Shown: positions 9,793 through 42,589 of the stretch, piece by piece
Numbering within the stretch: the stretch's first letter is position 1
Layout: every line of letters begins with the position of its first letter
Program-made: the position numbers and the translations under genes
Assembly (NCBI GenBank): GCA_050084515.1
Contig: CM114271.1
Span: 36,146,001-36,210,000 of the forward strand
Length of the DNA: 64,000 nt
Direction of reading: 5' to 3'
Source: Blasia pusilla
Taxonomy: Eukaryota
Notes under the pieces: model-generated
Databases searched by the model: none
What the model was told of the DNA's origin: nothing
The model's input: the letters and a program-made list of their open reading frames with translations, nothing else

Positions 9793-10968
9793 TCAAGATG
9801 CCCAAGACGGTGTTGTATAGTAAAATCAGCCAGTGTGTAAACTCCTTCCTCATTAAGTGTTAGTATTAAGTAAATTAGCTTAGGAAAAGGAAATTCTCAT
9901 GTTTAAACTTCTTTATAGTGCCTCTTTTATGCGGGCCCTCTTTTATGCGGGCCCAACTTTAGGAAAAGAGGTAATAAATAAAAGATGACTTTATAAAAGT
10001 AAAGTAGTGAGGTTGGTGTTTTAATGAAAAACAAAAGTAGTCTTGGTTATAAGTGGGTAAAAGAGGATATTTTGGAAGATATAAGAGGAAATCTACTTGT
10101 GTCAAAATATGATTGGCCTTGATAGGAAGCCATGTGGCATAAGATAAGATTAGTTCTATTTTTTACTCTTGTGGATCCCTTGTGAGTATATAAAGAGGAG
10201 GGACCTTCAAAGGTTAATCACCTTCTATTTCACATCTTGAGTCTCTCCTGTCACTCTTGAGTGTATGGTTTTGGGATTGCTTGCTCTTCCAATGAGAGTG
10301 GATCACCCTTCTTGGGAGACTAACTTGACCATGGTCTATTCTTCGAGAGGTTTCTAGAGTGTGGTGTGTGTGAAGATGAGAGGCTTGTCACCTTAGAGGA
10401 GTTTAGTCATACTAAAATAGTGAATTTTTTGGCTTGTTATTTTCCGAATGAGACTTGATGAACTCTCTTGGGAGAATAATTCCGCCAAAACCCATTCTTG
10501 AGAAGACTAGAGAATGTCTATCAAGCATGGATAGGGGACGAGCACAAGTTGTGCTCGACTTTCCTTTCCTCAATCCTTATCATGTTAAGGTACTCTTTGT
10601 AGATAGGCACGGGTTCACTCGCTATTTAGTTTATCACTTTGGGGATGCGTTCATGAACCAGATCATGCAATGTCCAACTCCGGTGATTCTTCCTATCGTC
10701 ACATATGGAAGGACATGGGATTGTACTTTGTATGTTCTTATATAGCGCTCCATAGACGTCAATAGGCCTGCTCAAGTAGGGTTTGACACTAGTTGTGCTC
10801 TCTTCCTCGTATACAAGCCTAAAGTAGTTTATAAGGATTTTATAGTTAGGAATTTCAGGGCCCGATGGTATGAAGAAGTGATCGCCTTGGCACTTCCTTT
10901 GGTGATGGAAGCTTACAACTTCTTGAAGGATTTGGCTACCAGCCCAGCAAATATATCTTTATCTGTAG

Positions 10969-11010
10969 TTACTTATGGATAATCCCATTTATGGGATTAT
11001 CCATAAGTAA
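10969..11010. repeat. Perfect inverted repeat, 20-bp arms and 2-nt loop
   Basis: TTACTTATGGATAATCCCAT-tt-ATGGGATTATCCATAAGTAA; extends imperfectly to about 10960-11019. Confidence 0.95.
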
Positions 11011-13509
11011 TTGTAGATATGCCTAGGAGATTGAGACATGGCGACTCTACTATGATCCACACTATGTGTCATGGATGGAGTCGTTCCTAGATGAGGAAGA
11101 GGAGTCAGGAGAGAATACTTCCTCTTTCACTAGTGATGCTTTAGGAGGGGTCACTCGCATTGGAGCAGTTGCACCGTTTAGTCGGATGCGTTCCTAGTTT
11201 AACCCCGTGGTTGAGTTCTTTGCTGAGTTGCGGGCGAGCTACCAAGGGGTACGGACAGAGAAGTTGCAGAGCATCCACGACTTCCAGAGGCGCCCGGGTA
11301 AGAGTTTTCTTGAGGCTTACACTCGCTTGCGCCGGTTGATCAACGCCACCCAGGGGGTGATAGAGGCTCAAGCTACCCAATCATGGTACGCGATGTTGGA
11401 TAAAACGATGAGGACACGGATGCGGGAGGGGGTGCTTCTTATGAACACCTCCCCTACGTTGAGAGATATTTTTAGGACCGTCAAGAACATTGATCATAAC
11501 ATGGCAGAGAAGGGCGTAGCCACCATGGGTTCTAGGCCAGAGCAATCACGATTTCTGCACCACCAGTGCAACAACGTGGATTCCGAGATAGGTTTGTGGC
11601 ACCAAAAGCTTAGGGAGGATACCATGAGGCCGTGCCTCAGAGACGTGTGCCTTCATATGCGACTTAGCAGAAGCCGCGTGGGATTATTTGTTGGGCATGT
11701 GGTGGAGCCCATCACCACCGCAATTGCACTTGTCACGATCATCGACACGTGCCTCAGCTTGGAGAAGGAGATGGTTCTGCACGAGGAGGTAATTAGTGTG
11801 ACTATTGTCAAAGGTACGGTCATACAGGCGCCAGGTGTTTCAATTTGCATCCTGAGTTACGTGCGGACCGAGGGCCAGAGAGGGCACCAGAGCAAGTTGC
11901 GAGTCTGAGTGGGCCTAGAGGTTGTGCACCAGGTGGTTCCGTTGGGGCATGAGGAGCTGGAGTTGCCCAAGAGGTTGGTGGAGTTTCCAGTGGAGGAGGT
12001 AGAGTTCCACCACCTAGACGGGTTGAGGGAGACGCCGAGCGTGAGGCTGGGATTGCTGCTCAGATATAGCAGCTACAGCAACATATTGCTGGTATGGCAC
12101 TGGGATTATCCGATGCTGGATCGATGGCATCGATGTCTTATGGAGCAGCTAGAGATATGGAGGATGTGTGTTGGATGTGCGAGGTTGCCCAGATGGAGGC
12201 CACCATAGTTGTCACACGTGGAGAAGCCGTAGAGTTGGATCTATAGCAAGGAAAAGCCAAGAAACAGACCAGGCTTCTTTAGTCTTTCACGCTATCTAAG
12301 GCGATGAGGATCCCATGGATGGGTCCTGATCCGAGTTCTTTGAGAGTTGGTGATGTTGTTGGTGTGTAGGCATAGAGGGCGATGGGAGAGGTAAGTGCGA
12401 CAACTCCTATCGCTTATGCTCAGGAGGAGCATGTGTTGAGCGCATTGTTGGGGGCCACCATTGTGTACCGCGCTCCTTTATTTTCTGCTTTCGATGTTAT
12501 GACGTTGGGTGGTACGCCTGCCGAGGTTTTTTGGTTGGACGCTACGCTATGTGAGCGTGGAGTTGGAGTTCCTACATCAGGTTCAAAGGTGATTGCAAAG
12601 GAGGTGATGGACGTGCTCTTGGAGCCGATGTTCGGGCCGTCCACATCAGATTCATGGCAGGTTGTGGCTACTAGGATGGCGGAGATGTCCACTAGACCCA
12701 CGATAGAGTGTGCCATGGCTTCTCCTAGTGTTGTGTTATTGGGTAACTCGGGAGAGGTCTTCAAATTGGTGAGTCTAGGAGGTAGAGCTTTAAGTCCACA
12801 GCGCATCTTGTTGGATTTAGGAGCACAACCCCTGATGTTGGGGAAAGCGGCATTCAGAGGTTTGGGCCTGACCTAGGCCGATGTGGAGTTGTCATTCAAG
12901 ATACAGACATCCTTCGGTGGAGCGAGTACCACACAATATATCATTCGACATGAGGTCGTGGTGAGAATTCTCCCAGGATATCCTACAGATGAGTCGGTGG
13001 TGCAAGCCAAGGCGATAGTGACCGATGCAGAGTCCTACGACGTCTTGGTTGGTGGAACAATGTTGTATCCGATGGGGTTTTCCTTGGATTACTGGGAGGA
13101 GTCAACATCCTAAAACCAAGATGGCAGTTTGGTGATGGACAAATTTGTTCATTAATCGTTCGATTCACGGGTGGAGTGATCGAGCAACGGCCAAGAGAGA
13201 TGGCGACCTTAGCAGCATTTACTAGTGCCATCACTTGGACAAGTGATTTGATTGAGGGACATGTCCATGCAGAGGAATTACCATTTTTGACATTTCTATA
13301 GAGAGCAGTGTCATGGTAGCCGCATTATTCTGTGGAGGAGAGGTGCCGCTTTGGGGCTCGACTAAGGAGCTTCGACACTTAGCCGCTGAGCATGTGCAAA
13401 CCGTATGGAGAGAGACGTTTGCACCAGAGCGTGATGGGTGAAAGGAACCCGAGGTAGCCAAGAGTGCTATTATGACCCCTTTTGACGCCACCCCTGAGGA
13501 GAGTATTCA

Positions 13510-14420
13510 CGTATGGTGGATCTCTTTGGAGGGATCACCACTGGTTTAGCTGCTGCTCTGCTGGCTAGAGTGCATGTGCAGTAATACTTGTACATGGAAG
13601 TTGATGATGTTGCGAGGCGCGCTTTAATTCACAATGTGGCGCCATTCTACCTCCGCCATCTAGGATTACGAGAGTTCCCTACCAAGGGACATTTCATTGT
13701 TGGGGGCGCAGGACTTGGAGCGGGTAGGGACCATAGACTTGTTCATTGCAGATTGGCCGTGTCAAGGCCAATCGAGTGTTGGATGAGGTAACGGGTTAGC
13801 TAACTCTTGGTCTAAGTTGTTTTGGGAGATGATACAAATTTTGCGACACTTGAAAGAGTATTAGTTCCGTTCTCTAGCATACATTCTGGAGAATGTGCCA
13901 ATTTTGGGTGATTTGAGGTCTCGCATGGTGACGAGTGCACAACACGTGCGTGCATGGATCAACTCGACAGTGTTGTTGGATACGGCGAATATGGGTTCAC
14001 GAGCATATCGCCCGCATCTTTGGTGGACCGACTTGGTGGCACATGAGGTGTTGCGGAGGGTGTATGCGAGAGTGGAGTGCCCCTTCGATTTTTTGGTGGA
14101 TTCTATTTTCGATCCAGGTCATCGATCAAAGGCAATGAGGCACGATGATCGCCCGCTGTTGAGTGTGGTCAACACGATTGGCATGCCACGGGAAGCCTTT
14201 CCAACATTGGTGAGTTTTCCGGCTTCCTATGGGTTCAAGAAGGCCGGGCCTGCCTTGGTTTGGGATGACAAGGAACAGCGATTAATGGAGCCCAACGCCG
14301 ATGAGCACGAGCGAGCGATGGGATTTCCCACATGAGTGATGGTAGTACCGTCACAATTAGAGGCATCACGACGTCATGTCTTGGGTTAGGCGATGGACCT
14401 GAACTGCTTGACATGGATTT
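13510..14420 (+). pseudogene. DNMT3-like C5-cytosine methyltransferase domain of element 1 (degenerate)
   Basis: Motif I VDLFGGITTG (about 13516), motif IV IADWPCQG (PCQ 13757-13765), motif VI YILENVP (ENV 13889-13897), motif VIII GSRAYRPHLWW, motif IX EHERAMGF, motif X RRHVLG*AMDLN. Confidence 0.9.
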
Positions 14421-15227
14421 TTAGCTTAGGAGTAGCGGAGCAACATCGTTTTAGGTTGCGACAAATTACAAAATTGCGTTGGTGAGCCCAATGCCTATCG
14501 AGACGGTTGAGATAGTGGCTGGGGGCGAGACCCGAAAAGATTGACACACCACGGATGATCAAGTTGGGATGTGTTGCAAGTAAGTAGGAAGATGATAGCC
14601 ACAACATCAAGCGTGGTTCTAGGTACTGCACGTGGAGGAGATCAGATTTTACAATTGGCTGCAAGAGAGCAGTCGAATTCTATTGTCCAAGACGGAGTTG
14701 CACCATAGCAACCACCAACACTTGCGCCAGAGAGTCCTACGATGGAGAGTTGGGAGCCACATATGGGCCCTAAGTTGATAGGAGGAGAGCGGCGCCGGAT
14801 ACATAAGTTCCTAAGGAGTTATAGGAGTTGTTTTGCATTTAGTATGCATGATTTGGGTACACTGAAGGGTCCACGCATCCGCATTGAGATGTTGAGTGAC
14901 ACGCCGATGTTCCGAAAATCTTACACGTACAATGACATGGAAAGGGCTCTGATTCAGAGTAGTAGCCAGGACTTGGTTGGAGCAAGATAAGTGGAGATGT
15001 TGCATGGAGAGTATGCATGTGCCACTATCATGCCTGCCAAGAAGGATGTGCATGGCAATTGGATGGATAGGCGGATGTGTGGAGGTTATGGACTTATGAA
15101 TCGGTAGACGAAGTCCGATACGTATTCTATGCCCATGAGATCTCTGATGCTATTGGGCATCCAAAGGTCTTCAATTCCCTAAATCTTTGAGCCGGATACC
15201 ATCAGCTGCATATCAGATTGGAGGACA

Positions 15228-15594
15228 TGTCATGACCATACGGATTATGTCGTAGAGTATAGTGTGCTAGTAGAGGCCATACCTCATGTAGGGCCGTAGT
15301 GTCTAGGTAGAGATGCGGTTTCATATATAGGGGTCGGGGTTACTCAATTTAGGTGACTTTTCCAATAGGACCCGCTCTTAGGTTGGAGGATATAGTATGG
15401 AGTGCACTCAAAGAACAGTTAGTTCTTTGAGTTGAGTCTGTTGCGTTGGGAGTTAGCCTTGGTAGTGAGTAGAGCTCTTGGCTTAGGTGGTTCCCGCAAG
15501 CTTCGACCTGGATTCTCCCATCGTGGAGTGGGTTTGGCTCGATTGTATGTGATTCTATACATGTTTTATGACAGTACGTCTTTCACGGATTTCA
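15228..15594 (+). repeat. 5' LTR segment A1 (367 bp)
   Basis: About 96% identical by eye to 24174-24541; ends TTTCA directly before the priming site. Confidence 0.92.
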
Positions 15595-15605
15595 CTCAAA
15601 GAACT
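15595..15605 (+). promoter_or_regulatory. Tf1-type self-priming site
   Basis: CTCAAAGAACT directly after the LTR end is the exact reverse complement of AGTTCTTTGAG at 15421-15431, about 30 bp downstream of a TATA-like GATATAGTA at about 15389; no tRNA-type TGG PBS is present. Confidence 0.75.
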
Positions 15606-17088
15606 GGAGTAGATCGATGATAGCTTCGATTGTGGATCAGTAGGATCTGGTTAGGGCTCATTGTGTACTCAGTCGTGGATGTTTGTGGCTTGTGGCCTAT
15701 GTTGGAGGTGGAATCTGAAGCGTGGTTTTAGGGAAGAAGCGCCTTGATAAGAGCTTTCCAATGCACTTTAGATTGCCGGATTCCGTCGAGGGAGTTGGAA
15801 GTTATCAAGGATTGAAGATTCTGGTTCGTGTTCGGCGGTTTTCTGATGTGGAGAGCTTAGAGTGCGGAAGCTCTGTTGAAGTTCATCCAGATTGGGTGAG
15901 AGGTTCCTGTTGCTACTTGTATTGTGATCTCATGTGATGCTATTTGCTTGAGTGTGTGGAGCGTTGCGGATTTTTGCGTGCATGAATCTGGGTGGAAGCG
16001 TTGTCAGATTTGCGATTCTTGCGGTGTATGGATAGCAAGTTTTTCTGATTTTTAGCTCAGAGTAAAGAGCTCGGTTGTAGCTGATTTTTTGTGGAGAGAT
16101 AGCTATGGTGTCCAATTGAATTCAAGGTGAAACAAATTCAATTTTGGTTAAGGATTTGTGGAGTAATTGCTGATCGAAATTTTGCGGACTAGCTCAAGGT
16201 CAGCAGATCGGAGGGGTTGGTTGGTTGGTGATTCGTCTGTTGTTAGAGACGCCTATCCCGTTGGGGGCGCCTTGGTTGGGCCTCTCTCCATAACGAAGCA
16301 TGGCGAACGGGGCATGTCTCAAGCATTTCTTGGCATTTTGAGGCTTTGAGGCAACTCGTGGTAGCTCAAGGCGAGTGGGTATGAGATGCGGACTAAGGAG
16401 CAAGGAGCAAGCAAGCAAGCTTGCTTTGCTTGGGGGTGAGGCAGTTTTTGTAGGATTTGTGATTTTAGTGTTGCATAACTAGTCACCCATCTTTGGGCTA
16501 TTATGCCTGGAAGACGCTTAACTGCTAAGTTCTTAACTATGCCAGTGTACACACTGGTGTAGCTCATTTGGTGTTGTTCGGAGATGTGTTAGGCGCTTTA
16601 TGCATCTCAGGTTTTTGGTTGATGGACCTCTAGCGCATAGTACGGTGTAGCCTCTCCATGGAGGTGATATTTTCAGGAGTTGCGAGTCCGACTAGCACGT
16701 CATCGACCCGCGGCGGAGTAGCTATTGCGTTAGAGTTGTGTGGTGGGTTCTGTGGATTCAGGGGGCGCCACGTTTGGTGGATTTTGTTACCTTGATTTCC
16801 ATTTGCGATTGGAGGGTTGTCGTTGGACTTCCTATGTTTGGATCCCCTCCATTGTTGCTTCTTGCTTGCGCGCCCATTTTTAGGGTTGACGCTGATTTCC
16901 AGAGTAGTGTTACTACTGTATGCTACCAGTAGTGAGGCTGGAGTGATGACCAATAGACCGTGGGAGGCTTCTTCTGGTGATGAAAGGTTAGGTTGCCTAC
17001 ACCCATAGCTAGTAGAGCTAGAATAGTACAGCGACATCGATGTCACTTGGTTACTTCGTGGTGGTAATTTGGCGGTGGTGCGGCATCG

Positions 17089-19560
17089 GTGTTGGTCATC
17101 ACGGAGCTATCTGGTGGTCTGGTTGGGGACCGTGGTGCGGACAGTGGTGGTTTTACACGGAGTGGATTGAGGTATGGGCTACCTTTTCCATTTCCGACAG
17201 TTGATGAAGAGGAGGACGAGGGTGTTCCAAACACCAAGTCTTCTACGTTGTTATCGAGTGTTGCAGCTCCATTGATTTGGGATATGGACAGGATATATGG
17301 GGCCATGAAGGGACCACAATGATACTCGGGTGCAGTGGGCACCATTGAGCTGGAGGACTTCATGCAGGAGTTTGATATGTGGTGTGATATGCAAATGTTG
17401 CGGAACGCCACATTGTTTACACCCTTCTTGGCTTGGAAGGGGTTGTTTCAGCACTTGGAGGGACCACCCATGGATGATTACCATGAGTTTAGGAAGGACC
17501 ATGTTGCTGAGATTGAGGCATGGAGACAATATTGGTCTCCAGGCTATGTGTCTATTACCTAGGGTGGTATTGGTAGTAGTGCTCCTACTATGCCAGCCAG
17601 CTCGACGTTGAGTGGTACGAGTACGAGCCAGAGTGGGGGTACCAGTGGAGGTACCCATGGAGGTACCAATGGGGGTACTAGTGGAGATACTAGTGCCCCA
17701 CCATCGTTCAACCCGGTTGCAGAGTTCTTCAAGAGGTTGAAGAAGAACTATCAAGGAGTGAAGATAGAGAAGTTGAGGAGTCTTCAGGAATTTGAGCGAA
17801 AGACTGGTGAGAGTCTTTGTGAGGCATACACTCGTATAAGACCCTTGATTTTAGTTACCTAGGGTGTGTCTGAGGCTCACGCAGTCCAGTTTTGGTATGG
17901 GATCTTGGACAGAGAGTTGCACCGTAGGGTACGTGATGCTACTCTTATGAGTGATGATTCACCCACATTGACCCATGTGTTTGCTCTATGTGAGAAGATT
18001 GAGCTTGACATGGTGGAGGAGAGAGTGGTGACATCCGCATTTAGTAGGGATACAAGTACTACTTCTCGTGTTCAGCAGTCCACCTCACAGTCTCGTAGTA
18101 ATGATGGTGGTAGTAGTAGTGGGAGTCATGGGGGGTACACACGACCTCTGTCAGGTCCTAGAGGGACACTTGCGCAGAGACCATTGCCTTCATTTGCTGC
18201 CCCGCAGCAAGGACAGTCATGTTGGACATATGGAGGTGATCATGTTAGGAGGTTTTGTCCCCAAGAGGATGGGAGATGGACTTTGGAGGATGGTCCTCAA
18301 TCGGCTCCAACTCAGTGTGATCATTGCGGGAGACCAGGTCATCCTCGAGAGCGTTGCTTTAATCTTCATCCAGAGATGAGATCAGGCCGCAGCTGTGGTG
18401 GAGTAGCTCCGAGAGGCTGAGGTGGTAGAGGTGGTAGGGGTGGTAGAGGTGGACCAATGGTTGGAGAGCCTAACGTGGCTACTCCTTCCACTACGATAGA
18501 GTCAGTTATGGCTGCCAGGATTGAGCAGTTGGAGTAGAAGTTGGGTACTATGGCTGATATCGAGCATAGAGCAGGATCGGGAGGAGGGGCTTCCACCTCT
18601 TATGGAGGGGATGATCTCTCTTATATGGCGAGTGCAGCACACGTTGAGGCATCAGCTGCAGTTACGAGAGGAGCCACTCGAGCGTCAGAGCAACGTGGTG
18701 CTACTGTGGAGTTGGACCCACAGAGGGGTGAGGCTGGGAGGAAGGCTAGGCTTCCCTAGTCATTCTTGTTGTCCGAGGTGCTTAGGACTCCATCCATGGT
18801 TCCTACGCAGCCTATTGAGCCTACAGTGAGGACTGAGGCATCTACATTGCGTGTAGGAGACACGGATGTAGCATCCAGTGCAGTATTGCGGATGGCAACT
18901 TCAGTGTTGGGATTCCCATTGTTTTCGGCCACGGAGCTGATGGCTTTAGGAGTTGACTTAGCTCCTCTATTAGCAGCCATGTTGTGTGAACGTGGGGATG
19001 TTACTCCTACACGTGCAAAGGTGGATGAGGGTGTTGCGGTGGAGCAACCCTCTATGTCAGGTGTAGCATTGAGTACCAGTGCTACTTGGCAGGCAGCAGC
19101 GGCGAAGATGGATGCATTATCAGCCCGGCCAACCATTGATGGTGAGAGGCTTACACCTGATGTATGTATGTTGGACAACCAAAGTGGATATTCCGATTGG
19201 TAAGTCCTACAGGACAAGTGTATAGACCAGATAGAGTCTTGTTAGACTCTGGTGCCCAACCTTTGATGTTGGGAAAGGCGGCATGTATTGGTTTGGGTAT
19301 TCGGAGGTCAGAGCTTGAGCCTTGCCCATTCCAAATTCAAACATCACTTGGAGGAGCCAATGATAGGTCTCAATTCATGACACGGGAGAAGTTGTCTGTA
19401 TAGTTGAGACCAGGTCATGCGATTGATAGCTCTTGGTTGGGAGTACGTGCAGTGGTCACATCAGCCGAGTCGTATGATGTACTAGTTGGAGGAGCAATAT
19501 TGTACCCGATGGGTTTTCAGATGGACTACTTGACTGAGACAACGTCTTATAGACCTGGTT
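17089..19560 (+). pseudogene. gag: gag with two zinc knuckles, plus aspartic protease, of element 2
   Basis: Same-frame fragments 17089-19203; CWTYGGDHVRRFC and CDHCGRPGHPRERC knuckles; protease VLLDSGAQPLML after a frameshift at about 19170. Confidence 0.9.
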
Positions 19561-19970
19561 GGCAGTCCGGGAATGGACGTATGAGCCAGGTTCCTATGAG
19601 ATTTATTTATGGGGCTCGACCAAGAGGGTCTTCCCCAACGGTGTTAGCATTTGTGGCTGGTTTTAGTGGAGTAGTCACTTGGCCAGGAGACTCTTTGGAG
19701 GCTAATCTTTCTGCTATGGATTCTCCTGTGCATGAGGAGGTAGAGGAGGTCCCTAGTTTTGCAGCAGTGGCATCCTCATCATTGGATGTGCCACTTTGGT
19801 GTTCAGGCGGTGCACTACGATAAGAGGCTGATCGCCTAGTGTAGGAGGCTTGGTGTGAAGCTGTTATACCTCACTAGGAAGAGGAGGCCCCATGGCGGAC
19901 TCCTACTTCTGGTCCAGTTGGGTTATCCCCTTTGGATACTACATCCATTGTATGGCAGTATCGGCCGGAG

Positions 19971-20910
19971 GGCATTTGTGTGTTAGATCTCTTTGGTGGG
20001 ATTAGCACTGGTTTGGCTGCAGTGTTGCAGACCGGTATTCCTGTGCGGAGATACTTGTATGTGGAGGGAGATGAGACGGCCCAGAGAGTCTCATCCCGAC
20101 ATATCGGTCAATTGATGCGAAGATATCCTCAGTTGTTGCCGCCATCAGCTATTCGTGGATACCAGCGTGCTTTGCCATCACACATTGCATTGTTGGGGGC
20201 GTAGGACCTTGAGAGGGTTGGTTGTGTGGATTTGGTGATTGCTGGATGGCCATGTCAGGGTCATACATGTGCTGGTCATGGTGAGGGATTACACGACCCT
20301 AGGTCTCGATTATTTTGGAAGATGTTAAGGATGTTACGACATCTTCAGGTTCATCAGGCACATGCTCCAGTTTACATTCTAGAGAATGTTCCATTGTTGG
20401 GTGACACTCGGACCCGAATGATGGCGAGTGTTTATGAGGTGCGGTCTTGGATTGGACCAGCGGTATTGTAGGATGCAGCGCGAGTTGGCTCGCGTGCACA
20501 TCGTCCATGCTTGTGGTGGAAAAACTTGTTGCCTAGGGACATTCTAAGTCGAGCACATGATGCAGTGTAGCGGGATCCTTGCCTTACAATCGATAGTATC
20601 TTGGATACTGGGCGACTTTCTCAGGTGGTGAGGGTTATTGATCGGTCACCCATGGCAGTGGTGAACCGTGTGGGCCAGCCTAGGATGGCACTACCCACAT
20701 TTGTGAGTTTTCCCTCGTCACATGCCTACACGGAAGGTGGTCCTGGGCTTGTATGGGATTCTCATATGCAACAGTTGGTGGAGCCTAATGCTGTATGAGA
20801 GAGAGCGTGCGATGGGATTTGCTACTGGTGTGACAGCGGTTGCTTCCATTTTTGAGGTTTCACGACGTCATGTGTTGGGTCAGGCCATGGACCTGAATTG
20901 TTTGACCTGG
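19971..20910 (+). pseudogene. DNMT3-like C5-cytosine methyltransferase domain inside the pol polyprotein of element 2
   Basis: Ordered motifs: I VLDLFGGISTG (19980-), IV DLVIAGWPCQG (PCQ 20250-20258), VI YILENVP (ENV 20382-20390), VIII GSRAHRPCLWW, IX ERERAMGF, X RRHVLGQAMDLN; same frame as the upstream protease; several stops and one frameshift. Confidence 0.93.
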
Positions 20911-21261
20911 ATTTTGAGTCTTTGGATGGTCGAGCAGCGTCAACTTTGAACTATGTCTATGGGTCTTCCACCCCTTGTGATGAGCTCGATGGCTACCGGG
21001 ACGGTAGAGACATTGGCTGGGGAGGAGAATAGTATTTTGCATCCTTGGAGTAAATGGGATGTAATGGTTGGGCATGTGGAGTTGGTTGCTCATGCTGGTG
21101 GAGAAGTTATTTGCTTAGATGATGGTATAGCTAAGGGTGTACTATCTTGTGAGGGGGTTTCCGAGCAGCCAATAGTGTCGTCCTCTCCCTCTAGTGTGCC
21201 AGTGGAGGAGACTTAGGAGCCATTACTTGGGCCCAAGATTAGGGGAAGTGAGAAACGACGC

Positions 21262-22640
21262 TTGACACAATTGCGACGTGCTTATAAGAGTTGTTTTGCC
21301 TTTAGCATGAAGGAGTTGGGTGCTTTGGTTGGACCCGGTATACGGATTGATTTGGCTAGTGATTCGCCAATCTTCCGTCGTCCTTACCGATATAGTGATA
21401 TGGAGAGGGACCTGATTCAGAGTAGGACGTTGGACCTTTTGGAGGCTAGATTAGTGGAGTTGTCGTATGGAGAGTATGCATCAGCCATTGTCATGCCTGC
21501 TAACAGGGATGTGCAGGGCAACTACACGGATAGGTGGATGTGTGGAGATTACCGTCCTATCAATCGGCACACCAAGGCCGATAGGTATGCCATGCCTACA
21601 CCTGAGGAGATCTTTGATGTGGTGGGACAAGCAAAGAATTTTAGTACTTTGGATCTTCGGGCAAGATACCATCAGTTGCCAATTCGAGAGAGTGACAAGG
21701 CCAAGATAGCATTTTGGGGTGTCAACTCTCATGGCAATGATTGTTTGTACCAGTGGAAATTCTTACCCTTTGGGTTGAAGAATGCACCTGCCGAGTTTCA
21801 GAGAGTGATGGACAGGATCCTAGTAGGGTTGGATTTTGTTTGGTGTTACATTGATGATATCTTGGTGTTCAGTAACACGGTGGAGGAGCATCAGATACAT
21901 TTGCAGATTGTGTTTGAGCGGTTGAAAGCTCATGGTCTACGTTTGCATCCAGGAAAGTGTAAGTTCTTCCATGAGGATGTAGAGTACTTGGGTCATGTGA
22001 TCTATCCAGGTGGTTTGGGAGTTCAACAAGCAAAGGTGGAGGCTATTGCACTTATTCCTCATCCGGTAGATGTGAGTAGAGTTCGGGCATTCATGGGATT
22101 AGCGAACTACTATCGGAGGTATGTGAAGGGATTTAGTGCTATGGCAAAGCCTTTGAACCAATTGCTGAAATCAGATCAGGAGTGGCACTGGGGAGATGAT
22201 CAGGAGAGAGCTTTTGTGGAGCTCAAGGACCCAGTTGGTGACATGCACCTATCTTGAGGAGACCTATTAGAGGGTGCCCATTTCAATTACACACTGATTG
22301 GAGTAGGTTGGGACTTGGAGCGGTGTTGACACAACATGATGATGAGCACATGGAGTTTGTGGTGGCCTATGCAAGTCGTTCGAATAATGCAGCGGAGTCG
22401 CGCTATAGTTCATATGAGGGAGAGTGCTTGGCAGTAGTGTGGGCTATGGCACACTTTAGGTGTTACTTGTTTGGCACATAGTTTACCCTTGTTACTGATC
22501 ACCAACCGCTCAAGTGGTTGATGGAGTCTGACAAGCTTACAGGGAAGCTTGCACGGTGGGCTCTTATCTTACAGGAGTATGACTTCCAGGTGGTACATAG
22601 ACCTGGAGTTGCCAACCTTGATGCTGATGGGTTGAGTAGG
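21262..22640 (+). pseudogene. pol: Reverse transcriptase and RNase H of element 2
   Basis: MCGDYRPIN, FSTLDLRARYHQL, LPFGLKNAPAEFQRVMD, YIDD, EYLGH; RH FQLHTDWS, YEGECLAVVWA, TDHQPL, DADGLSR. Confidence 0.95.
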
Positions 22641-23039
22641 AACCCATGTACGAGCCAAGAGGATGCAATTGGGGCTAGATGGCATGGCGAGGTTGATGAG
22701 GAGATGGTGTCAGGTTGGCATGCATCTGCCTTTTTCTATTGGTTAGGGGTAGACTCTAGTATGGAGGACCACATGACATCTTACTCTAGTCAGAGGGTAG
22801 ATGGCCAGCCTTCAAATCCTAAGGTTGGAGATGGTCGTACGGATCAACGTGATATTCATGATGATGCGTTGGTGTTGGAGTTCCTACGGACCAGTAGGAT
22901 GCCAGGCATAGTGAGTGCCAAGGAGCGAGACCGTGTTCTTCAACGTTCTAAGAGGTATCGATTGGAGGGAACACATATTCTCCGTGTGTGGGAGGATGGT
23001 AGAGTACAAGTAGTGTCGTATTTGACTTAGAGAGAGCGC

Positions 23040-24052
23040 ATTGCACGACATGCCCATGAGGAGTTGGGACATTTTGGGGTAAAGCGTACGTATAGCTTAC
23101 TCCTTGGTCAGTATTGGTGGCGTGGCATGCATACTCAGGTGCAGCAGTTGGTGTCACGTTGTATGGTTTGTGACCGGGTGAGGGCATCATTCAATGCCCC
23201 TACACCATAGTTACACCCCTTGCCTATTATGGGGTTGGGTTACCGTTGGAGTGTGGACTTTGCGGGACCGTTACCGTTGACTGTACGACATCATCGATAT
23301 GTGTTGGTGATGGTGGAGCACTTCTCCAAGTGGATTGAGTTGGTGGCATTACCTGACAAGGCAAGTGAGGGAACGGCGTATGCGTTTCTTGATAGAGTGC
23401 TTAGTCATTTTGGTGCACCAGCTAAAGTGCTGACCGACTAGGGTACAGAGTTTGAGGGTTAGTTTCAGGTCTTGTGTGATAAGACGTAGATTGATCATCG
23501 GACCACGTCTCGAGATCATCAAGAGCGGATGGTTTGGCTGAGCGTGTGGTTCAGATGGTGAAGAGGGCATTACGCAAGTATGGCCTAGAGAAGGGGCATC
23601 TTGGAGACTGGGATATTCAGTTGCCATGGTTAGCCATGGGGTATAGGTTCAGTCGCCAAGCATCCTTGGCTTCCTTCTCACCTTATTTTCTGTTATACGG
23701 CCGAGATCCAGACTTGCCCACAGCAATTTTTCGGGAGTCTAGTGAGGTGGTGAACCTTGATGACCCAGAGATGTGGATGAGAGTGTGTTCTCAGCGGACA
23801 GAGCTCTTTCGGAGAGTTATGCCAAGAGCCTTTGAGAATCTTGCCATTGCTCAACACAAGGATACATTGCGGTATGCAACCATTCGGGGTGGAGGTTATC
23901 AACCATCGATTTGTAGGTTCCATGTGAGGGATTATGTCTATTTGCAGCAGAATGCACCGACAACGTTGGATGTGACGGCAGACCGCACTATTTTACGAGT
24001 GCGCGAGGTGTTAGCTTCTGGAGTTCTCATGTTGGAGGGTCGTGATGGAGTT
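23040..24052 (+). pseudogene. DDE integrase of element 2; C-terminus abuts the PPT
   Basis: HHCC zinc motif HEELGH...CMVC; core WSVDFAGPLP, LTD*GTEF, GLAERVVQMVK; SPYFLLYGR. Confidence 0.92.
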
Positions 24053-24055
24053 GTT

Positions 24056-24067
24056 AGGGGGGCGAGT
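24056..24067 (+). promoter_or_regulatory. Polypurine tract
   Basis: AGGGGGGCGAGT immediately before TGTGGTAC (start of segment B1). Confidence 0.75.
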
Positions 24068-24647
24068 TGTGGTACACTTGTGTTTGTGGATGCTCTCGAC
24101 TATGTTATGTATGTATGTGAGTATGGTATGTCAGCGATTTATGTTGTATGACGATGTGGATTTGCACGACAACTGTCATGACCATACGGATTATGTCGTA
24201 GAGTATAGTGTGCTAGTAGAGGCCATACCTCATGTAGGGCCGTAGTGTCTAGGTAGAGATGCGGTTTCATACATAGGGTTGGGGGTTACTCAGTTTAGGG
24301 TGACTTTTCCAGTAGGGCCAACTCTTAGGTTGGAGGATATAGTGTGGAGTGCACTCAAAGAACAGTTAGTTCTTTGAGTTGAGTCTGTTGCGTTGGGAGT
24401 TAGCCTTGGTAGTGAGTAGAGCTCTTGGCTTTGGTGGTTCCCGCAAGCTTCGACTTGGATTCTCCCATCGTGGAGTGGGTTTGGCTCGATTGTATGTGAT
24501 TCTATACGTGTTTTATGACAGTAGGTCTTTCACGAATTTCAGTTGTGGTACACTTGTGTTTGTGGATGCTCTCAACTATGTTATGTATATATATGAGTAT
24601 GGTATGTCAGCGATGTATGTTGTATGACGATGTGGATTTGCACGACA
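24068..24647 (+). repeat. 3' terminal repeats B1 (24068-24171), A2 (24174-24541), B2 (24544-24647)
   Basis: B1 and B2 are 104-bp copies with 4 differences; A2 matches A1. Confidence 0.92.
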
Positions 24648-26809
24648 GACAGGTAGAAGACGGCATTTAGGGGCATCGATCCTCATGGAAAGGATTCTTT
24701 GTACCACTGGCGATTCTTACCATTTGGGTTAAAGAACGCCCGGCCGAGTTGTAGAGGATCATGGATAAGACCTTGGCACGTGTGGATTTTGCTAGGTGTT
24801 ATATTGATGACATCATAGTCTTTAGCGCCACGGTTGAGGAGCATGAGCGACATCTAGAGGAGGTGTTTTGACAATTGCAGTAACATGGGATGAAGCTACA
24901 TCCAAGCAAGTGAGAGCTCTTCTACGAAAAAATTGAGTACCTTGGTCATACAATAAACCCAGGTGGCCTTGGTGTGCAGTTGACAAAGGTAGAGGCTATT
25001 TCACCCATTCCATGTCCTACAAATGTGAGTTGAGTTCGTGCATTCATGGGATTGGTGAGCTTCTATCGATGGTACGTCAAGGGTTTCAGTTTGATTGCGA
25101 AGCCGCTAACCTGCTGACTAAGATGGATCAGAAGTGGCACTTGGGGATGAGCAGGAGAGAGCATTCCAGCAGCTCGAGGACAAATTGTTATTTGCGCTCA
25201 TATTGTGGAGACCGATCAAGAGGCGTCCTTTCCAGTTGCATACAAATTGGAGCATGTTGGGGCTTGGAGCGGTGCTCACCCAACATGACGATCATGGTAG
25301 AGAGTTCGTGGTGGCTTACGCTAGGCGCTCAAACAACGCTGTAAAGGCAAAGTATAGCTTATATGAGTGTGAGTGCTTGGCTGCAATGTGGGTTATCGTA
25401 CATTTCATGTGTTATGTATTCGGCAACCCCTTTACCTTCATTATTGATCATCAGCCACTTAAGTAGTTGATGTAGTCCGATAAGCTTACAGAGAAGCTTG
25501 TGAGGTAGGCTCTTTTGTTGTAGAAGTATGACTTCCATGTGGTGCATAGACCTGGGATGCTCAACGAAGATGCAGATGGTTTGAGCCGTAACCTATGCTC
25601 GAGTCAGCGAGATGCATCTGGAGCTCGTTGGCATGGAGAGAGTGATGAGGAGTTGGTGCCATGATGGCACGCATCAGCCTATTTGGGCTTGTTGGCTATG
25701 GAGAGCCTGATTGTTGAGACTTCGATGGCGAGGTCTGATGGAGAGTCCTTAGATTAGAGGCCGGTGAGGAGACGACAGGTGGCCAAGATATTCACGACGA
25801 TGGAGTAGTCTTGGAGTACCTACGTACTGGCAACGTCATGAGGATAGTGGGTTCCAATGGGAGGGAACACATGTGTTGCGAATGTGGAAGGATGGTAGAG
25901 TATGTGTAGTGCCTCATCCTTCACAGAGAGCACGTTTGGTGCGTCATACCCGCAAGGAGTTGGATCATTTTGGAGTGAAGTGGACATATAGCTTACTCTA
26001 GATATAGTATTGGTGGCGAGGCATGCAGATTGACGTTCCACAGTTTGTTGCCAGGTGCATGGTTTGTGGTCGGGTCCAAGCATAATTCAATGCTCTGACT
26101 CCATAGTTGCATCCACTTTTGATCATGGGTTTAGGTTATAGATGGAGTTTGGATTTTGCAAGACCTTTGCCTTTGACGGAGCACCATAGTCATTATGTGT
26201 TATATGTCATAGCAACAAAACCACTGTGTTATCTTCCTCAAATATTTTGGATATAGCCATACAATCAAAATATGGTGGTGGAATACAAAATAAAAGAAAT
26301 CTTTGATTATTGCAAATAATGTAATACCAAAGTATTAAATGCATAAATGATAAGGAAACCCGATTCAATCATTCAATCTATTGAATAACCCAAGAGTTTT
26401 GATTCATAAAATATTTATTCATTTGTTTGTCTTGATGTTATTAATAGACACACAATTATGATTGATTTAATATGATACTTGTAACTCCAAACATACAAAT
26501 TATTTCTCATTTATGGTTGTCTTGTGATTTGTATCGTGATACAAATGGATCATTTGTATTCAATCTAAAACAACGATAAATTTGCAAAAAGTGTCTTTTC
26601 TTTATAAATAGCTACATATATGTTCAGCCTAAGTCCGCCATCTAACGTCTACTTCACATCTGTAGTAGGACAAGGCAAAAAAAACATGCACTGTTCACAA
26701 TAGTTGTAGGATTGGTGGTGTTATTGATAATGACAGATATATTGGAATTTGCATCTACATCCCTGATACGCCCGCCCCCCTCTTTGCCTATTGATGGATC
26801 GATCATCTA

Positions 26810-27560: not shown

Positions 27561-29647
27561 TTCTATCCTTTTTATAAGTTTCGGCCTTAAGAACTTTCTT
27601 TGAAACATAACACATTCAACCCCTTAACAATGAAATGATTCCTCATATTCACTACTTCCAATTACTAGAATTGGAAGTAGTGAATATATCCCAAGAAATA
27701 GAGGCTATTCTCACTCACATGCTCCAAGTTATATCCATATATCCACTTAGGTTCAATTGAGGATTTCTTGTTTATGAATGCATATCATTTTTCCCACTCT
27801 CCACCCCGAGCAACAAACAACTTATTTTAATCGGGTTGAGAATTCAAGTCATTGATTTATCCTTTAAGTTAGATTTAATCCATCTTGTATAATTCACTCC
27901 AAAAATTCAATGCAAAAATATACTACTCCCAACTAATGCATCATAGTAGGAAATTTGCTAATGATTTTCCTCCCCATTGTTGAAAGATTAATCGACAATT
28001 TTAGCTATCTTCATCAAAATTCTCACAAATTTCTCAAATCCATCAAATCTTCCCTCGTTGTAGTTTCTATCTAAGATAGAAGTCTTATTAAATCTAATTT
28101 TACCCACAAACGCATCCACTTATGTGGAATTTGGGCATTATACTGTCCAAGGGCCTTCCTCTCATTCCTCCCTAACTTACGCCATTTATTCTTGCTCTTC
28201 CCTACAATGGGAAGGGATTGAGTTACGAATTTTTGGATCTCACCTTCCTTGCCTGAAGAATCTTCCATGCTATTCACAATCATACCAAAAAATTTTTGGT
28301 TACTTGTTTTTTATTAATAGATATATATATATATTTTTAATTAAAAAATATGAAAAAAACAAAGTAATTACCTCCAAAAAATCAAAAATAATAATATGAG
28401 ATCACTAGTTTGAAAAAAATGAGGATTATGAATAAAAAAAATGAACATACGTTTACTAGCTCGCCTAATTGAACGTACGTTTGTAATGAAATGCCGCGTG
28501 TAATAGTTTGGAGCATGCCAAATCAAATTTGTGGATACAAAGTATCCATACCTCAAACAATCGTAAGCGTTAACATGACAACCTGCATGATTTCGCACAA
28601 AATATAGATATCTCTTTCTGTCGCTTCCACTTAGAGTACCTAGAAAACCATTGAAAACAACAAATTGTGCTTGTAGTGACTTATAGGAAAACGATAGAGG
28701 TAGAAATGAGAATGAGGTGGAGATAAAAGTGTATGATCCATATGTAGGGGGAAATTTTTGGGTGGGGTTGGAGGGAGGGGTAGTTTTGGGTGCCGACCTA
28801 TATGTATGAGCAGATGCCTATGGGCAGAAAATCCCATATATGTGGGGTTTTTTTTCTAAAAAGAAAGAATATTTGGGATGTGCTACACCTTGTTTAAGAC
28901 CATAATTTAAAAATGAAAGATTCATTACAAACTTAGGAAAATATCCATTACAACCATTATAGCTTTTAAATCAACTTTCAATTCTCATAAAGATCGTTAT
29001 AAACATCCATTGGAATTTTTTTCCATGAATATCCAAAACAGATTTCCCCGAAAATTATGGCAAAAAAAAAGTTTAGTTCGTAAAAATTTCACTTTACTAT
29101 AAGAAAAACTTTCAAAAGAGGACTAAGCAAGGCAACAACGTCCCAAGAAGGGAAAGAGGCAAGAAATCGAACAAGAAGTGTGAAAAGAAACAACAATGCA
29201 CAAACATAAAAACAATTTAACAACCCAAGTAATTAATAATTTGAAACAATTCCGACACGAACACTAGTGGAATAGACAAGGAGATGAATAACTACCAACT
29301 AATTTAGTTTCGATGTATCAATTTGAATTCCTATCCACGTCATAGTACCACATAGATGTATGGCTATAGTAAATAGTGAGGATCGGGAAAGAAAGAGAGC
29401 ATGACTCTCAAGGGAATAACAAACACATGTTTTCATGAGAGGATAAGGGTTGGGCCATAAGGGTGTATGAGAAAAAAATTTATAATTCCTACGAACTAGT
29501 TTGGAGGGGAAGTTTTGGGAGGAGAGAAAAATGCCCTTGTTTGTACACACCACCAATAGAGTAGATGGGACCAAAAGAGAAAAAAAAAATAATATGAACG
29601 GGAGATGTATACGAGTATATGATATGGGATGAAACTACAAACTACCA

Positions 29648-39842: not shown

Positions 39843-40808
39843 TTACTGGTTATGCAACAATTCATGCAACGACTTGTAGTGACGTTTGTTGGGTGGCCTG
39901 TCTAAAACGTCACAATCGTCTACGTCGAAGCCAAAAACTCTGGCAGGATCTGGGTGTCGGATTTGATTGGCTCTGATCCTCCTCTTTCGCAGCGTGCTTG
40001 AGTCGTGACTAAGCTTGGTGAATTGTGTCCGCGTTGTACTTTGATCGCTCGTCCAAGCTAACCTTGGGGAAATTCCTTCAGGGAGATCAAGAGTAGTATG
40101 AATTTCCTCTACTAGTTCCGATAACTCTTGAAAATCAGGGGACACAATGTAAAATTTGGATAAATCTCTTGCCGACTCGTGAGAGTCGTTGGGTGGCTCT
40201 TGGCCACAGGAATCTACACTTCCGGAATAGCTACTTAGCTCCAGAAGGTGGCAAGCTGCAGAAACATCGGCCATATCAAAGCATTCTATCCCAGGCACAA
40301 TACCTGAGGGGCATGACAGAATGTTAGCAGGATTGGCTGTCGCTGGGGGACCGGAGTCGCGAAACTGTGGCAATCTCATACTTCCAACCCTTCCAGATTC
40401 TTCGAATTCATTGCCGGAATCATTCGTGAATGGGGCTAGTCTCTCATCCATTTTATCAACATCGGCCAATGTGTCCAGCCCCAAGCTCGCTACCCTGGTC
40501 CTATTCTCGCTCAGGTTGGAGCAGCACTCGTCCATGCTGTGAAGCTCCTCCTCGTTTGCTTTGGGAGGTTCAGCGTAACCGTCGCCCAACTCCCTCTGAC
40601 GAAAAGGAGGCCAGGGTTCGGCGCTGAAGGCATGCGCAACGGCAGCTGAAGAAGTCCACGGATTCGATGCCTCAGTCCCCTCAGTTTCGAGATGCACGTA
40701 AAGCTCTAAACCTGAAGAAGAATAGGCTGATTGCTTCGATTCAATGCCGAGAAGAATGCAGAGCTGTAGACAATTTGAAGAAGCGACCTTGGTGTTCAGT
40801 AACTCCAT
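39843..40808 (-). CDS. Probable host gene, uncharacterised 321-aa protein with basic C-terminus
   Basis: Longest stop-free non-TE ORF; CpG-retaining context; splice acceptor (TGTCTTTTAG) at 40839-40840 just upstream, consistent with a 5'UTR intron; RKRRIR and PPNKRH NLS-like patches. Confidence 0.6.
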   Translation of the reverse strand: MELLNTKVASSNCLQLCILLGIESKQSAYSSSGLELYVHLETEGTEASNPWTSSAAVAHAFSAEPWPPFRQRELGDGYAEPPKANEEELHSMDECCSNLSENRTRVASLGLDTLADVDKMDERLAPFTNDSGNEFEESGRVGSMRLPQFRDSGPPATANPANILSCPSGIVPGIECFDMADVSAACHLLELSSYSGSVDSCGQEPPNDSHESARDLSKFYIVSPDFQELSELVEEIHTTLDLPEGISPRLAWTSDQSTTRTQFTKLSHDSSTLRKRRIRANQIRHPDPARVFGFDVDDCDVLDRPPNKRHYKSLHELLHNQ

Positions 40809-42589
40809 TGCTTCTATGACATTGGGATACGCATGTACCTAAAAGACAATCCAGTTTGCAGCGTAGCTTAATTACAAAATTGTTCAAAATTGCACTGGAG
40901 CTTAACTGCAAATCGATTGAACATCGTCCCCAGTTTCAAATCAATAACAAAGAAACGCGTTAAATCGAATGTACATGTATACGATCATGGAGTAAGCGGA
41001 CATCTTGAATAATATCTAGACCAATAAAGAACGTAGAATTTACTCAATCATGCCATCAGCATGCCAATTGCGGTTTAATCATGGTCATTTCAATTCCTTC
41101 CTGACCGTGGGCTGGGTGTGTACACGTAGCTCGAACACTACCTATCCTCAACACAGCTGCCGAATTGTCATGCGCTCAGCCACTGGGTGTCCAATGGATC
41201 TTTCAAGAACCCTAGCAAGCAACTTCTTCCTCCTAGTAAATCTGTTAGGCTTACAGAGAATCCTGGTTGACAAGATTATGATTCACACACTCAGCGCCTG
41301 TAAGAAAAAGATTTGATTGAGATCAATCACAAAGTATCTCCTGAACAAATCCCGCAATAGCTAAGTGCATCCTGTCGGACCAGGTATCTTCAATTGGAAA
41401 GGCCTGCCTTCCAGCATAGTCCAGGCGCCTAGTCATGTTCTCCCTCTCGTTCCAAATTCTCGTACACCTGTAAACCTCCGACCTCGCCTCCCAAACCTTT
41501 CCCTCACGACCCCGAACCCCGTCTGGCTCTCTCTCACCTTTACTGCAGCGGGAAACGACGAGCATTGCTGAGGTGCGGCTGGCTCAATTGATTTTCTCCA
41601 CCGGAAGTGTGCCCTCGACGCAGAAGCAGAAACTACACCCGAACTTGATCACAAAACCAAAGGTGCACGCTCTTAATACGTCCGCGACGTCGCCGAGACA
41701 ATCGATTTACCAGTGTACCTAAGAAACGCTTCCTGCGTTGCAAAGATTCTATGCCGAAGGCTTTGTGGAGAACTTCGAAGTGAAGATTTATGTTCAAGAT
41801 ACGCACAAACCCATGCTGCCAGAAGAGGCAACTAACGCGACCACCAAACCGCTACCCAAACCGGCTGTCGCGTACTTAAATCAAACACTTTGGCTACGCC
41901 CAGCGCAACTCGCCCGTCGAACGCCTCGATTGGACGGACAAGAATCTGTTCCGAGAAAGAGCCCACAAAAACCAAACGCGAGAATGTTCTCCGAAAACCT
42001 TCGTCATGATCAAAACCGGCACTCATTTGGAAAGTCCGGTACCACTACCGCAACTCCAACCACGCACTTGTGCATCCCAAATACACGCTAGCAACCGGGT
42101 AGTAGCCTTCATAATAGAAAACCCCACTAAGCAGGACGCAAGCAGCACCTGAGTCTCTTACATCGTATACATATCTCCACAATAAGACAATTTTACTTGG
42201 AGTAGTGTCTCTCTCCTCAATATAGAAGCTACTCTCCCTAACAATAAGGAATATGATATCCCGCATAACAGTGTGAATTACTATCCCCTCCTCCCAAAAA
42301 GTTAAATGCACACGAAATGAATCCAAACTCCAATGACACTCGAACTAATCACCAATGGTTGGGGAAGGCCTAGTTGGAGCGTCGGGGCCCACAAAAGTAG
42401 GCTCAGTGTGGGCCTTGAGCGCGCCGTCCATGGGCCTTGCGGGACTACTGCAAGCCTTGCACAAGCTGGTGCATGCCTCTATGGGCTCGATAAGGGCCTT
42501 AGAATGGGTAGCAAGAACAGGCAACGAGTCGTTGGATTGGGTGCGGGCTATTTGAGCTATAGTCTACGTTATGAGCTTGGATGAGGACC

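Follow-up and report, generated by a model that had tools for sequence, protein, structure and literature searches.

The stretch of Blasia pusilla DNA analysed here (64,000 nucleotides; assembly GCA_050084515.1, contig CM114271.1, positions 36,146,001 to 36,210,000 of the forward strand; hereafter the window, numbered from its first letter) holds two copies of a retrotransposon, one inserted within the other. The inner one, copy B, at 15228-24647, is very probably a Ty3/Gypsy-type element, decayed and non-autonomous, that carries a DNMT3-like domain in its pol region, belongs to a bryophyte family of such elements and is nested in an older relative, copy A. A Ty3/Gypsy element with a DNMT3-like cytosine methyltransferase inside pol had been proposed earlier from the letters alone (the original prediction), and the order of the Pfam domains, together with searches of the PDB by sequence, profile and fold, bears this out. 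The parts of the two copies are as follows.

11018-15227, + strand: 5' part of copy A, with gag, protease, DNMT (~13477-14458) and the start of the reverse transcriptase, disrupted by numerous stops and frameshifts (tblastn, 31-62% identity).
15228-24647, + strand: copy B, the whole decayed Gypsy-DNMT3 element (self-BLAST, junction alignment and tblastn with Marchantia proteins).
15228-15593, + strand: terminal repeat A1 at the 5' end, ~95% identical to A2 (BLAST, 15218-15594 against 24162-24541).
15594-17283, + strand: 1.7-kb leader without a recognisable coding domain.
17284-19188, + strand: gag, broken by stops (tblastn with residues 1-618 of P0123/P0124/P0128, ~60% identity).
19161-19823, + strand: aspartic protease region (VLLDSGAQ at ~19236) with one in-frame stop (translation).
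19878-20940, + strand: DNMT3-like domain, a C5 cytosine methyltransferase with motifs I-X in order (Pfam, translation, profile).
20941-21216, + strand: linker between DNMT and reverse transcriptase with two stops in the frame of the latter (translation); P0123/P0124 align to it with their C-terminal parts.
21217-22227, + strand: reverse transcriptase with a YIDD box (PF00078, E 4.8e-30; open reading frame 21217-22257).
22245-22985, + strand: RNase H of Ty3/Gypsy type (PF17917, E 2e-8; tblastn).
23028-24055, + strand: integrase, with H2C2 at ~23028-23186, the rve core at ~23241-23510 and a C-terminal part.
24055-24062, + strand: TAGGGGGG, a polypurine-tract-like motif directly 5' of internal repeat B1.
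24063-24647, + strand: 3' repeat block, composed of B1 (24063-24171), the dinucleotide AC, A2 (24174-24540) and B2 (24541-24647).
24652-26211, + strand: 3' part of copy A, with the rest of the reverse transcriptase, RNase H and the start of the integrase (BLAST, tblastn), truncated after ~26211.

The methyltransferase domain of copy B is recognised directly by Pfam. The piece 20205-20471 matches PF00145 at E 2.6e-10 (score 40.7 bits, cut-off 22) and the read-through of 19878-20798 (P0001, stops written as X) does so at E 2.2e-9; the search with this family, put forward in the original prediction as a check, is thus significant in both forms. Eight of the nine relatives tested also match PF00145, and relatives of the domain reach E 6.5e-153 in the protein search, which excludes a chance match. 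In translation the motifs of copy B read LDLFGGISTG (I), AGWPCQG (IV), ILENVP (VI), SRAHRPCLWW (VIII), ERERAMGF (IX) and RRHVLGQAMDLN (X), and they follow one another unrearranged between the protease on the 5' side and the reverse transcriptase on the 3' side, just as had been described. The catalytic Pro-Cys of motif IV (GWPCQG) and Glu-Asn-Val of motif VI (ILENVP) are present in both copies of the window; the PCQ and ENV that had been called intact are those of AGWPCQG and ILENVP in copy B. The assignment of all the motifs to the protease frame is right for motifs I-VIII and wrong for motifs IX and X, which lie in the next frame, the same as that of the reverse transcriptase, after a one-base frameshift near 20794, upstream of motif IX.

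Comparison with solved structures places the domain closest to DNMT3. A phmmer search of the PDB returned 32 matches, 29 of them DNMT3A, DNMT3C or DNMT3B (best 6e-11), with plant DRM and M.HaeIII coming next. A profile of 13 family members ranked DNMT3A first (5e-18), then DNMT3C and DNMT3B (1e-15) and DRM (7e-12 to 3e-8), with M.HhaI (7e-7), DNMT2 (3e-4) and DNMT1 (0.36) lower down. The AlphaFold model of an intact relative, P0002, made from a 24-row alignment, has a mean predicted local distance difference test score (pLDDT) of 89.9, and all the Foldseek matches listed for it, down to rank 48, are DNMT3A, DNMT3B or DNMT3C, with template modelling scores of up to 0.84 when normalised to the target. 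The stretches VLSLFDGIATG, DLVIGGSPC and AHRARYFW, quoted earlier as parallels, are indeed DNMT3A sequence as aligned. With the catalytic domains of DNMT3A, DNMT3B and DNMT3C (e.g. 6w89, 6f57, 8tci) the family shares the unrearranged series I-X and the short spacing between motifs VIII and IX. It differs from them in an identity of only ~20-23%, in the absence of PWWP and ADD domains and in being embedded in a retrotransposon polyprotein, and its motif IV has PCQ where the aligned human DNMT3A chain has PCN. The motifs of DRM are rearranged, whereas those of the family are not. In the tree published by de Mendoza et al. (2018, PMC5890265), the DNMTs of Klebsormidium elements fall inside the DNMT3 clade. 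Judged by the solved animal and plant structures and by this placement, the domain is DNMT3-like in sequence and, as modelled, in fold.

The limits of copy B are sharp. It starts with TGTCATG and ends with CACGACA, between the two arms of a 4-bp target duplication, GACA, at 15224-15227 and 24648-24651. It sits inside the reverse transcriptase of copy A, the sequence of which resumes exactly across the insertion when set against the uninterrupted reverse transcriptase of copy B: 24657-25684 of copy A matches 21703-22735 of copy B at 72%, and 25857-26201 matches 22961-23305 (BLAST). The two copies are 64-72% identical in DNA and have the order gag-protease-DNMT-reverse transcriptase in common. 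Copy A is the older and the more decayed; its DNMT has eight stops in the read-through 13283-14458 as well as a frameshift, with motif I in another frame, and still retains PCQ, ENV and ERAMGF.

The remaining domains of copy B are those of a Ty3/Gypsy element. Its gag, read through, begins MDRIYGAMKG and has the CCHC knuckle CDHCGRPGHPRERC. The homologous protease region of the relatives P0143 and P0151 gives a weak match to Asp_protease_2 (E ~1e-4, below the Pfam cut-off), and the integrase matches PF17921 (E 1.2e-15) and PF00665 (E 4.5e-12). The order protease, reverse transcriptase, RNase H, integrase, the Gypsy-type RNase H, the H2C2 and rve integrase, the TG...CA ends and the short target duplication of 4 bp are all as in that group; the two identical flanking long terminal repeats (LTRs) of the group are missing, the 5' end carrying repeat A alone.

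Relatives of copy B are numerous. A word-index search found 175 near-length and 39 longer related proteins at E <= 1e-3, most of them without an organism name. Every close match that bears a name is from a bryophyte, the hosts being Marchantia polymorpha, M. paleacea, Riccia sorocarpa, Calypogeia fissa and three species of Sphagnum, and no Klebsormidium sequence is among the named family matches. Since all the named close relatives are bryophyte sequences, the family occurs in land plants, and the extension to embryophytes that had been foreseen is borne out. Marchantia polymorpha alone has many gene models, with lengths reaching 1333 residues and identities reaching 75%. Two Marchantia models, P0125 and P0134, combine PF00145 with reverse transcriptase and RNase H, and the reverse transcriptase of copy B is 70-80% identical to theirs (tblastn).

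A scan of metagenome contigs supplied 80 further related loci (numbered L001 onwards). All 54 of those that hold protease, DNMT and reverse transcriptase have them in that order, and copy A has its DNMT at the same place, so that family members agree on the position from which the original prediction argued. This bears directly on the possibility of a chance juxtaposition, in which a piece of a host DNMT3, or a DNMT3 gene hit by a retrotransposon, is mistaken for a single element. The broken reading frame of copy B would by itself suit such an accident, but the same colinear order is found in copy A, diverged as it is, in the 54 informative loci and in P0125 and P0134 of Marchantia, and the target duplications bracket the whole unit; we regard the accident as having a negligible chance of being the explanation.

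The full series of gag, protease, DNMT, reverse transcriptase, RNase H, integrase and PHD finger is present in 19 of the 80 loci. A PHD finger stands directly 3' of the integrase in 32 of them (L006, L027 and, at 14170-14424, L036 are examples) and in the Marchantia protein P0152. No PHD finger was detected in the window at E <= 10, both of its copies being without one, and in copy B the stretch from the end of the integrase (24055) to B1 is missing. P0152 (Mp_7g09570, named 'PHD-type domain') joins the end of a protease, a partial DNMT, the C-terminus of an integrase and a PHD finger, and looks like a deleted copy of the element or a mis-modelled gene. Across 82 copies (the 80 loci and the two of the window), ENV is retained in 78, LFGG in 69 and PCQ in 53, and in alignments of diverse members the catalytic PC, the ENV and the arginines of motif VIII are invariant or nearly so.

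The repeats of copy B are arranged as A...B-A-B, and B1 and B2 are 96% identical (BLAST). The ends were compared in copy B and in L025, L027, L028, L036, L038, L040, L043, L053, L069, L071 and L074. L027 and L036 repeat the layout of copy B in full, L043 and L069 show it at their 3' ends, and another seven loci have just A...B. Both forms begin with TGTCATG, or a decayed version of it, and end with CACGACA, and of ten elements eight have perfect 4-bp target duplications and two have duplications one base off. As these ends come with duplications of their own in both forms, they are true inserted ends. An ordinary pair of LTRs altered by a chance deletion was considered and ruled out, since separate loci, each bracketed by a target duplication of its own, have the same layout. 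A tyrosine recombinase concealed in the 1.7-kb leader was looked for and not found: none of the three + frames of the leader holds a Pfam family in copy B or in L036, and the coding space of copy B is filled by gag, protease, DNMT, reverse transcriptase, RNase H and integrase. The motif TAGGGGGG lies right before the internal B in all 13 elements examined, repeat A terminates in ...TTTCA, and the junction between B and A is an imperfect palindrome. We infer that the inserted ends would correspond to a circular or permuted complementary DNA (cDNA) cut at this junction. Recombination between B1 and B2 could equally have produced the A...B form.

In a wider search the profile matched 469 of 1.84 billion representative sequences at E <= 1e-30; the best 150 of the 469, many of them polyproteins of 1000-3456 residues, score 243-413 bits. 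Only one of 20 representative clusters looked up bears the name of an organism, the 'pol' of a green alga, Scenedesmus sp. (P0229), and a search of the Atlas for Klebsormidium-type relatives gave generic methylase clusters only. Three of four wider representatives show, by Pfam, the order reverse transcriptase, RNase H, DNMT, integrase, PHD finger. Among 325 proteins there are two architectures, with the DNMT between protease (PR) and reverse transcriptase (RT) in the bryophytes and the window (PR-DNMT-RT), or between RNase H (RH) and integrase (INT) elsewhere (RT-RH-DNMT-INT-PHD). The second position of the homologous DNMT is that of P0168, P0178, P0229 and ~100 others, mostly metagenomic polyproteins.

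The different positions could mean that a host DNMT3 was taken up by the bryophyte elements independently of the elements of Klebsormidium and the algae, the likeness being convergence; that retrotransposons have acquired DNMTs more than once is a theme of the literature (PMC5890265; bioRxiv 10.64898/2026.05.21.726589). The two architectures nevertheless have very similar DNMT domains, as the scores of the top 150 representatives show, and both place a PHD finger after the integrase; the A...B-A-B layout moreover agrees with the figure legend for KnitGypsy-Dnmt3, the Klebsormidium element, in PMC5890265. A tree of 162 DNMT domains, built by maximum likelihood under LG+G4 with a quick search (no outgroup, direction unset), puts the PR-DNMT-RT type in one clade of 41 tips, of which 27 are of that type, none is of the other and 14 are fragments of unknown type, with a support of 98 in the Shimodaira-Hasegawa-like approximate likelihood ratio test (SH-aLRT). 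A single change separates the architectures in the tree, which fits one relocation, with the reservation that host DNMT3 is not included as an outgroup. Independent capture is accordingly judged unlikely. One relocation of the DNMT within one old green-lineage group would be the simplest reading of the sequences.

Selection was estimated from the ratio of non-synonymous to synonymous substitution (dN/dS) by the method of Nei and Gojobori, on codons aligned via tblastn, with stop codons skipped and the pairs not independent of one another. By class of synonymous divergence (dS) the ratios are as follows.

dS <0.2: DNMT 0.66-0.82; reverse transcriptase 0.47-0.49; protease 0.78-1.18.
dS 0.7-1.2: DNMT 0.25; reverse transcriptase 0.16; protease 0.275.
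dS >1.2: DNMT 0.17; reverse transcriptase 0.165; protease 0.25.

The comparison of copies A and B gives 0.18. The low values at depth indicate constraint like that on the essential enzymes, and in these deep, saturated comparisons the DNMT was under purifying selection, as were reverse transcriptase and protease, while the family diversified. Neutral evolution, which the original prediction had named as a ground for rejecting it, is not what is seen at dS >0.7, where the DNMT gives 0.17-0.25. The high ratios at low dS fit neutral decay of dead copies after insertion. The commonest damage to the DNMT in the 80 loci and the window is change of Arg to Cys or His and of Gln to stop, which is what deamination of methylated cytosine is expected to leave behind; many copies have RAHC, CAHH or HAHR in place of RAHR, and in 11 of the 82 PCQ has become PC-stop. 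The window has A or T where related copies have G or C at 85 places, against 43 of the reverse (contigs of run X1). Depletion of CpG as a sign of special methylation was considered and ruled out, the observed/expected ratio being 0.57 in the element and 0.60-0.67 in its flanks.

How an intact element of this family would use its enzyme can be sketched from the order of its parts. The single polyprotein runs from gag through protease, DNMT, reverse transcriptase and RNase H to integrase, and intact relatives have the PHD finger at its C-terminus in addition. In active elements the DNMT would be translated within Gag-Pol and enclosed in the particle with reverse transcriptase and integrase; its place between protease and reverse transcriptase would put it where the cDNA is made. 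There it might methylate, de novo, either the freshly made double-stranded cDNA or the DNA that flanks the insertion, while the PHD finger of the integrase would read histone tails and steer the insertion. The new copy would then arrive already bearing the host's heterochromatin mark, and might be quiet enough to spare the host or might pass as resident DNA. De novo methylation of cDNA or insertion site, which the original prediction had also suggested for a packaged enzyme, is the model with the best support and one already discussed for DIRS elements (PMC5890265). Taken as a whole, the inferred chain of packaging, de novo methylation, PHD-guided insertion and premarked copies seems to us to fall slightly short of an even chance of being correct.

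A number of observations weigh against a working, element-borne DNMT3-like enzyme. The DNMT of copy B is interrupted by in-frame stops at 20202-20204, 20469-20471 and 20568-20570, and because these and the frameshift break the frame, copy B cannot make the enzyme and is a pseudogene. One of the stops and the frameshift are absent from every contig counted at these two breaks when the contigs of four public runs are aligned; the contigs represent many related copies. A stop-free DNMT domain of 368 residues is found in only two of the 80 loci (L001 and L006), and most copies are therefore dead. At low divergence the dN/dS of the DNMT rises to 0.66-0.82, and the signal of selection comes from saturated deep pairs treated by a simple method. 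The closeness to DNMT3 is a closeness among solved structures. Finally, in the one published test, made in yeast, the Klebsormidium Gypsy DNMT showed no de novo methylation, a result that its authors did not regard as decisive (PMC5890265).

The last result would suit a DNMT kept by the element for something other than DNA methylation, either acting on RNA like DNMT2 or serving as a DNA- or chromatin-binding module, and the same authors raise RNA methylation for a DNMT borne by a LINE (PMC5890265). The nearest enzymes by sequence and fold are nevertheless the DNA methyltransferases DNMT3A, DNMT3B and DNMT3C, with DNMT2 at ~3e-4 only; the PC, the ENV and the motif VIII arginines are nearly invariant in diverse members; and human DNMT3B was also negative in that yeast test (PMC5890265). 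We think a role of this other kind quite unlikely, and DNA methylation by the intact enzyme remains the preferred reading. A wider picture, in which liverworts and mosses, Marchantia polymorpha included, harbour an abundant, hitherto undescribed Gypsy lineage equipped with DNMT and PHD finger, derived by one relocation of the DNMT from an old green-lineage group that has it between RNase H and integrase, integrating from circular or permuted cDNA by means of a DDE integrase and, in its active members, methylating its own new copies, is possible in its entirety but doubtful.

Some features of the window and of the element deserve a brief record in their own right. On the coding strand of the elements (window 10001-26000) G and T predominate and C is scarce, copy B having G 0.31, T 0.29, A 0.22 and C 0.18, with a GC skew of ~ +0.25; the same bias in L001, L006, L027 and L036 extends to copies with an open DNMT frame and is therefore a trait of the family and not a consequence of the decay of copy B. 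Palindromes occur at 10960-11019 (60 bp, 87% self-complementarity), near the start of the gag of copy A, and at 27645-27687 (44 bp, 95% self-complementarity). A long GA/TC dinucleotide repeat at 1890-2170 translates into poly-(RE) or poly-(LS). Unrelated to the element are two direct-repeat arrays, one at 44944-46408 (six copies at a spacing of ~207 bp, 62-78% identity) and one at 53038-53915 (three copies of a 151-bp unit). On the - strand, 39843-40838 is an open frame of 331 residues without a Pfam family, the sole relative of which in the protein collection is a hypothetical protein of Marchantia polymorpha (33% identity over 89%). This match and the named relatives of the family point, if weakly, to a bryophyte host, probably some liverwort that is not M. 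polymorpha.

Copy B itself is an ordinary dead copy. What merits the attention of a specialist is the presence and abundance of the family in a tractable land plant, its PHD finger and its odd ends. There is a paradox in a retrotransposon carrying the kind of enzyme used to silence retrotransposons. Dinoflagellates and Klebsormidium, the hosts known so far, do not lend themselves to manipulation, while Marchantia polymorpha has genetics, methylomes and transformation. If such elements prove frequent in bryophytes, and especially in Marchantia polymorpha, the activity of the enzyme, the methylation of newborn copies and steering by the PHD finger become testable. Some family gene models from bryophytes are public under the name DNA (cytosine-5-)-methyltransferase and are parts of retrotransposons, which affects counts of host DNMT genes. 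The family also corrects a printed claim, made in a 2019 opinion article, that DNA methylases encoded by transposons are absent from land plants (PMC6338049). Later papers assign Gypsy-DNMT3 elements to streptophytes (bioRxiv 10.64898/2026.05.21.726589; PMC12344493). In the literature searched, no report of DNMT-bearing retrotransposons in bryophytes or other land plants was found, although the supplements of PMC5890265 and PMC12344493 may hold such data.

Among known systems, chromoviruses resemble the PHD-bearing members of the family in having a chromatin reader fused to the C-terminus of the integrase. The reader is a chromodomain there, known to guide integration (bioRxiv 10.64898/2026.05.21.726589), and a PHD finger accompanied by a DNMT here, both copies of the window being without the finger. 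The split direct repeats of PAT and Ngaro elements, A1-B1-A2-B2 (PMC4157794), have the same layout as those of copy B. SymbioDIRS-Dnmt3 shares both the DNMT3 domain and the A...B-A-B repeats, and in yeast the DNMT3 domains borne by the Symbiodinium DIRS elements carry out de novo methylation of CG (PMC5890265). The present family differs from PAT, Ngaro and SymbioDIRS in its DDE integrase (H2C2 and rve), its TG...CA ends and its 4-bp target duplications. The Scenedesmus 'pol' and the metagenomic Gypsy-type elements have a homologous DNMT (>243 bits), the same type of integrase and a PHD finger after it; it is RNase H and integrase, and not protease and reverse transcriptase, that flank their DNMT, and they fall on the other side of the split in the tree.

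The closest parallel is KnitGypsy-Dnmt3 of Klebsormidium nitens, described as having a DNMT3-type domain in a Gypsy Pol open reading frame with Ka/Ks <0.2 (de Mendoza et al. 2018, PMC5890265) and compared here by that description and not by sequence. Both have an unrearranged, intronless DNMT3-type domain with the catalytic residues kept, purifying selection and a streptophyte host. The repeats of KnitGypsy-Dnmt3, like those of SymbioDIRS-Dnmt3, are reported to be of the DIRS kind (A-coding-B-A-B), in its case in the company of Gypsy domains (PMC5890265), and the bryophyte elements too have DIRS-type A-coding-B-A-B repeats despite their Gypsy domains. They differ in their hosts, which are liverworts and Sphagnum, and in copy numbers that look high (many Marchantia models, and 80 loci from only a few metagenomes). 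Elements of the Gypsy-DNMT3 kind have been known since 2018 from Klebsormidium, and it is their occurrence in land plants that is added here.

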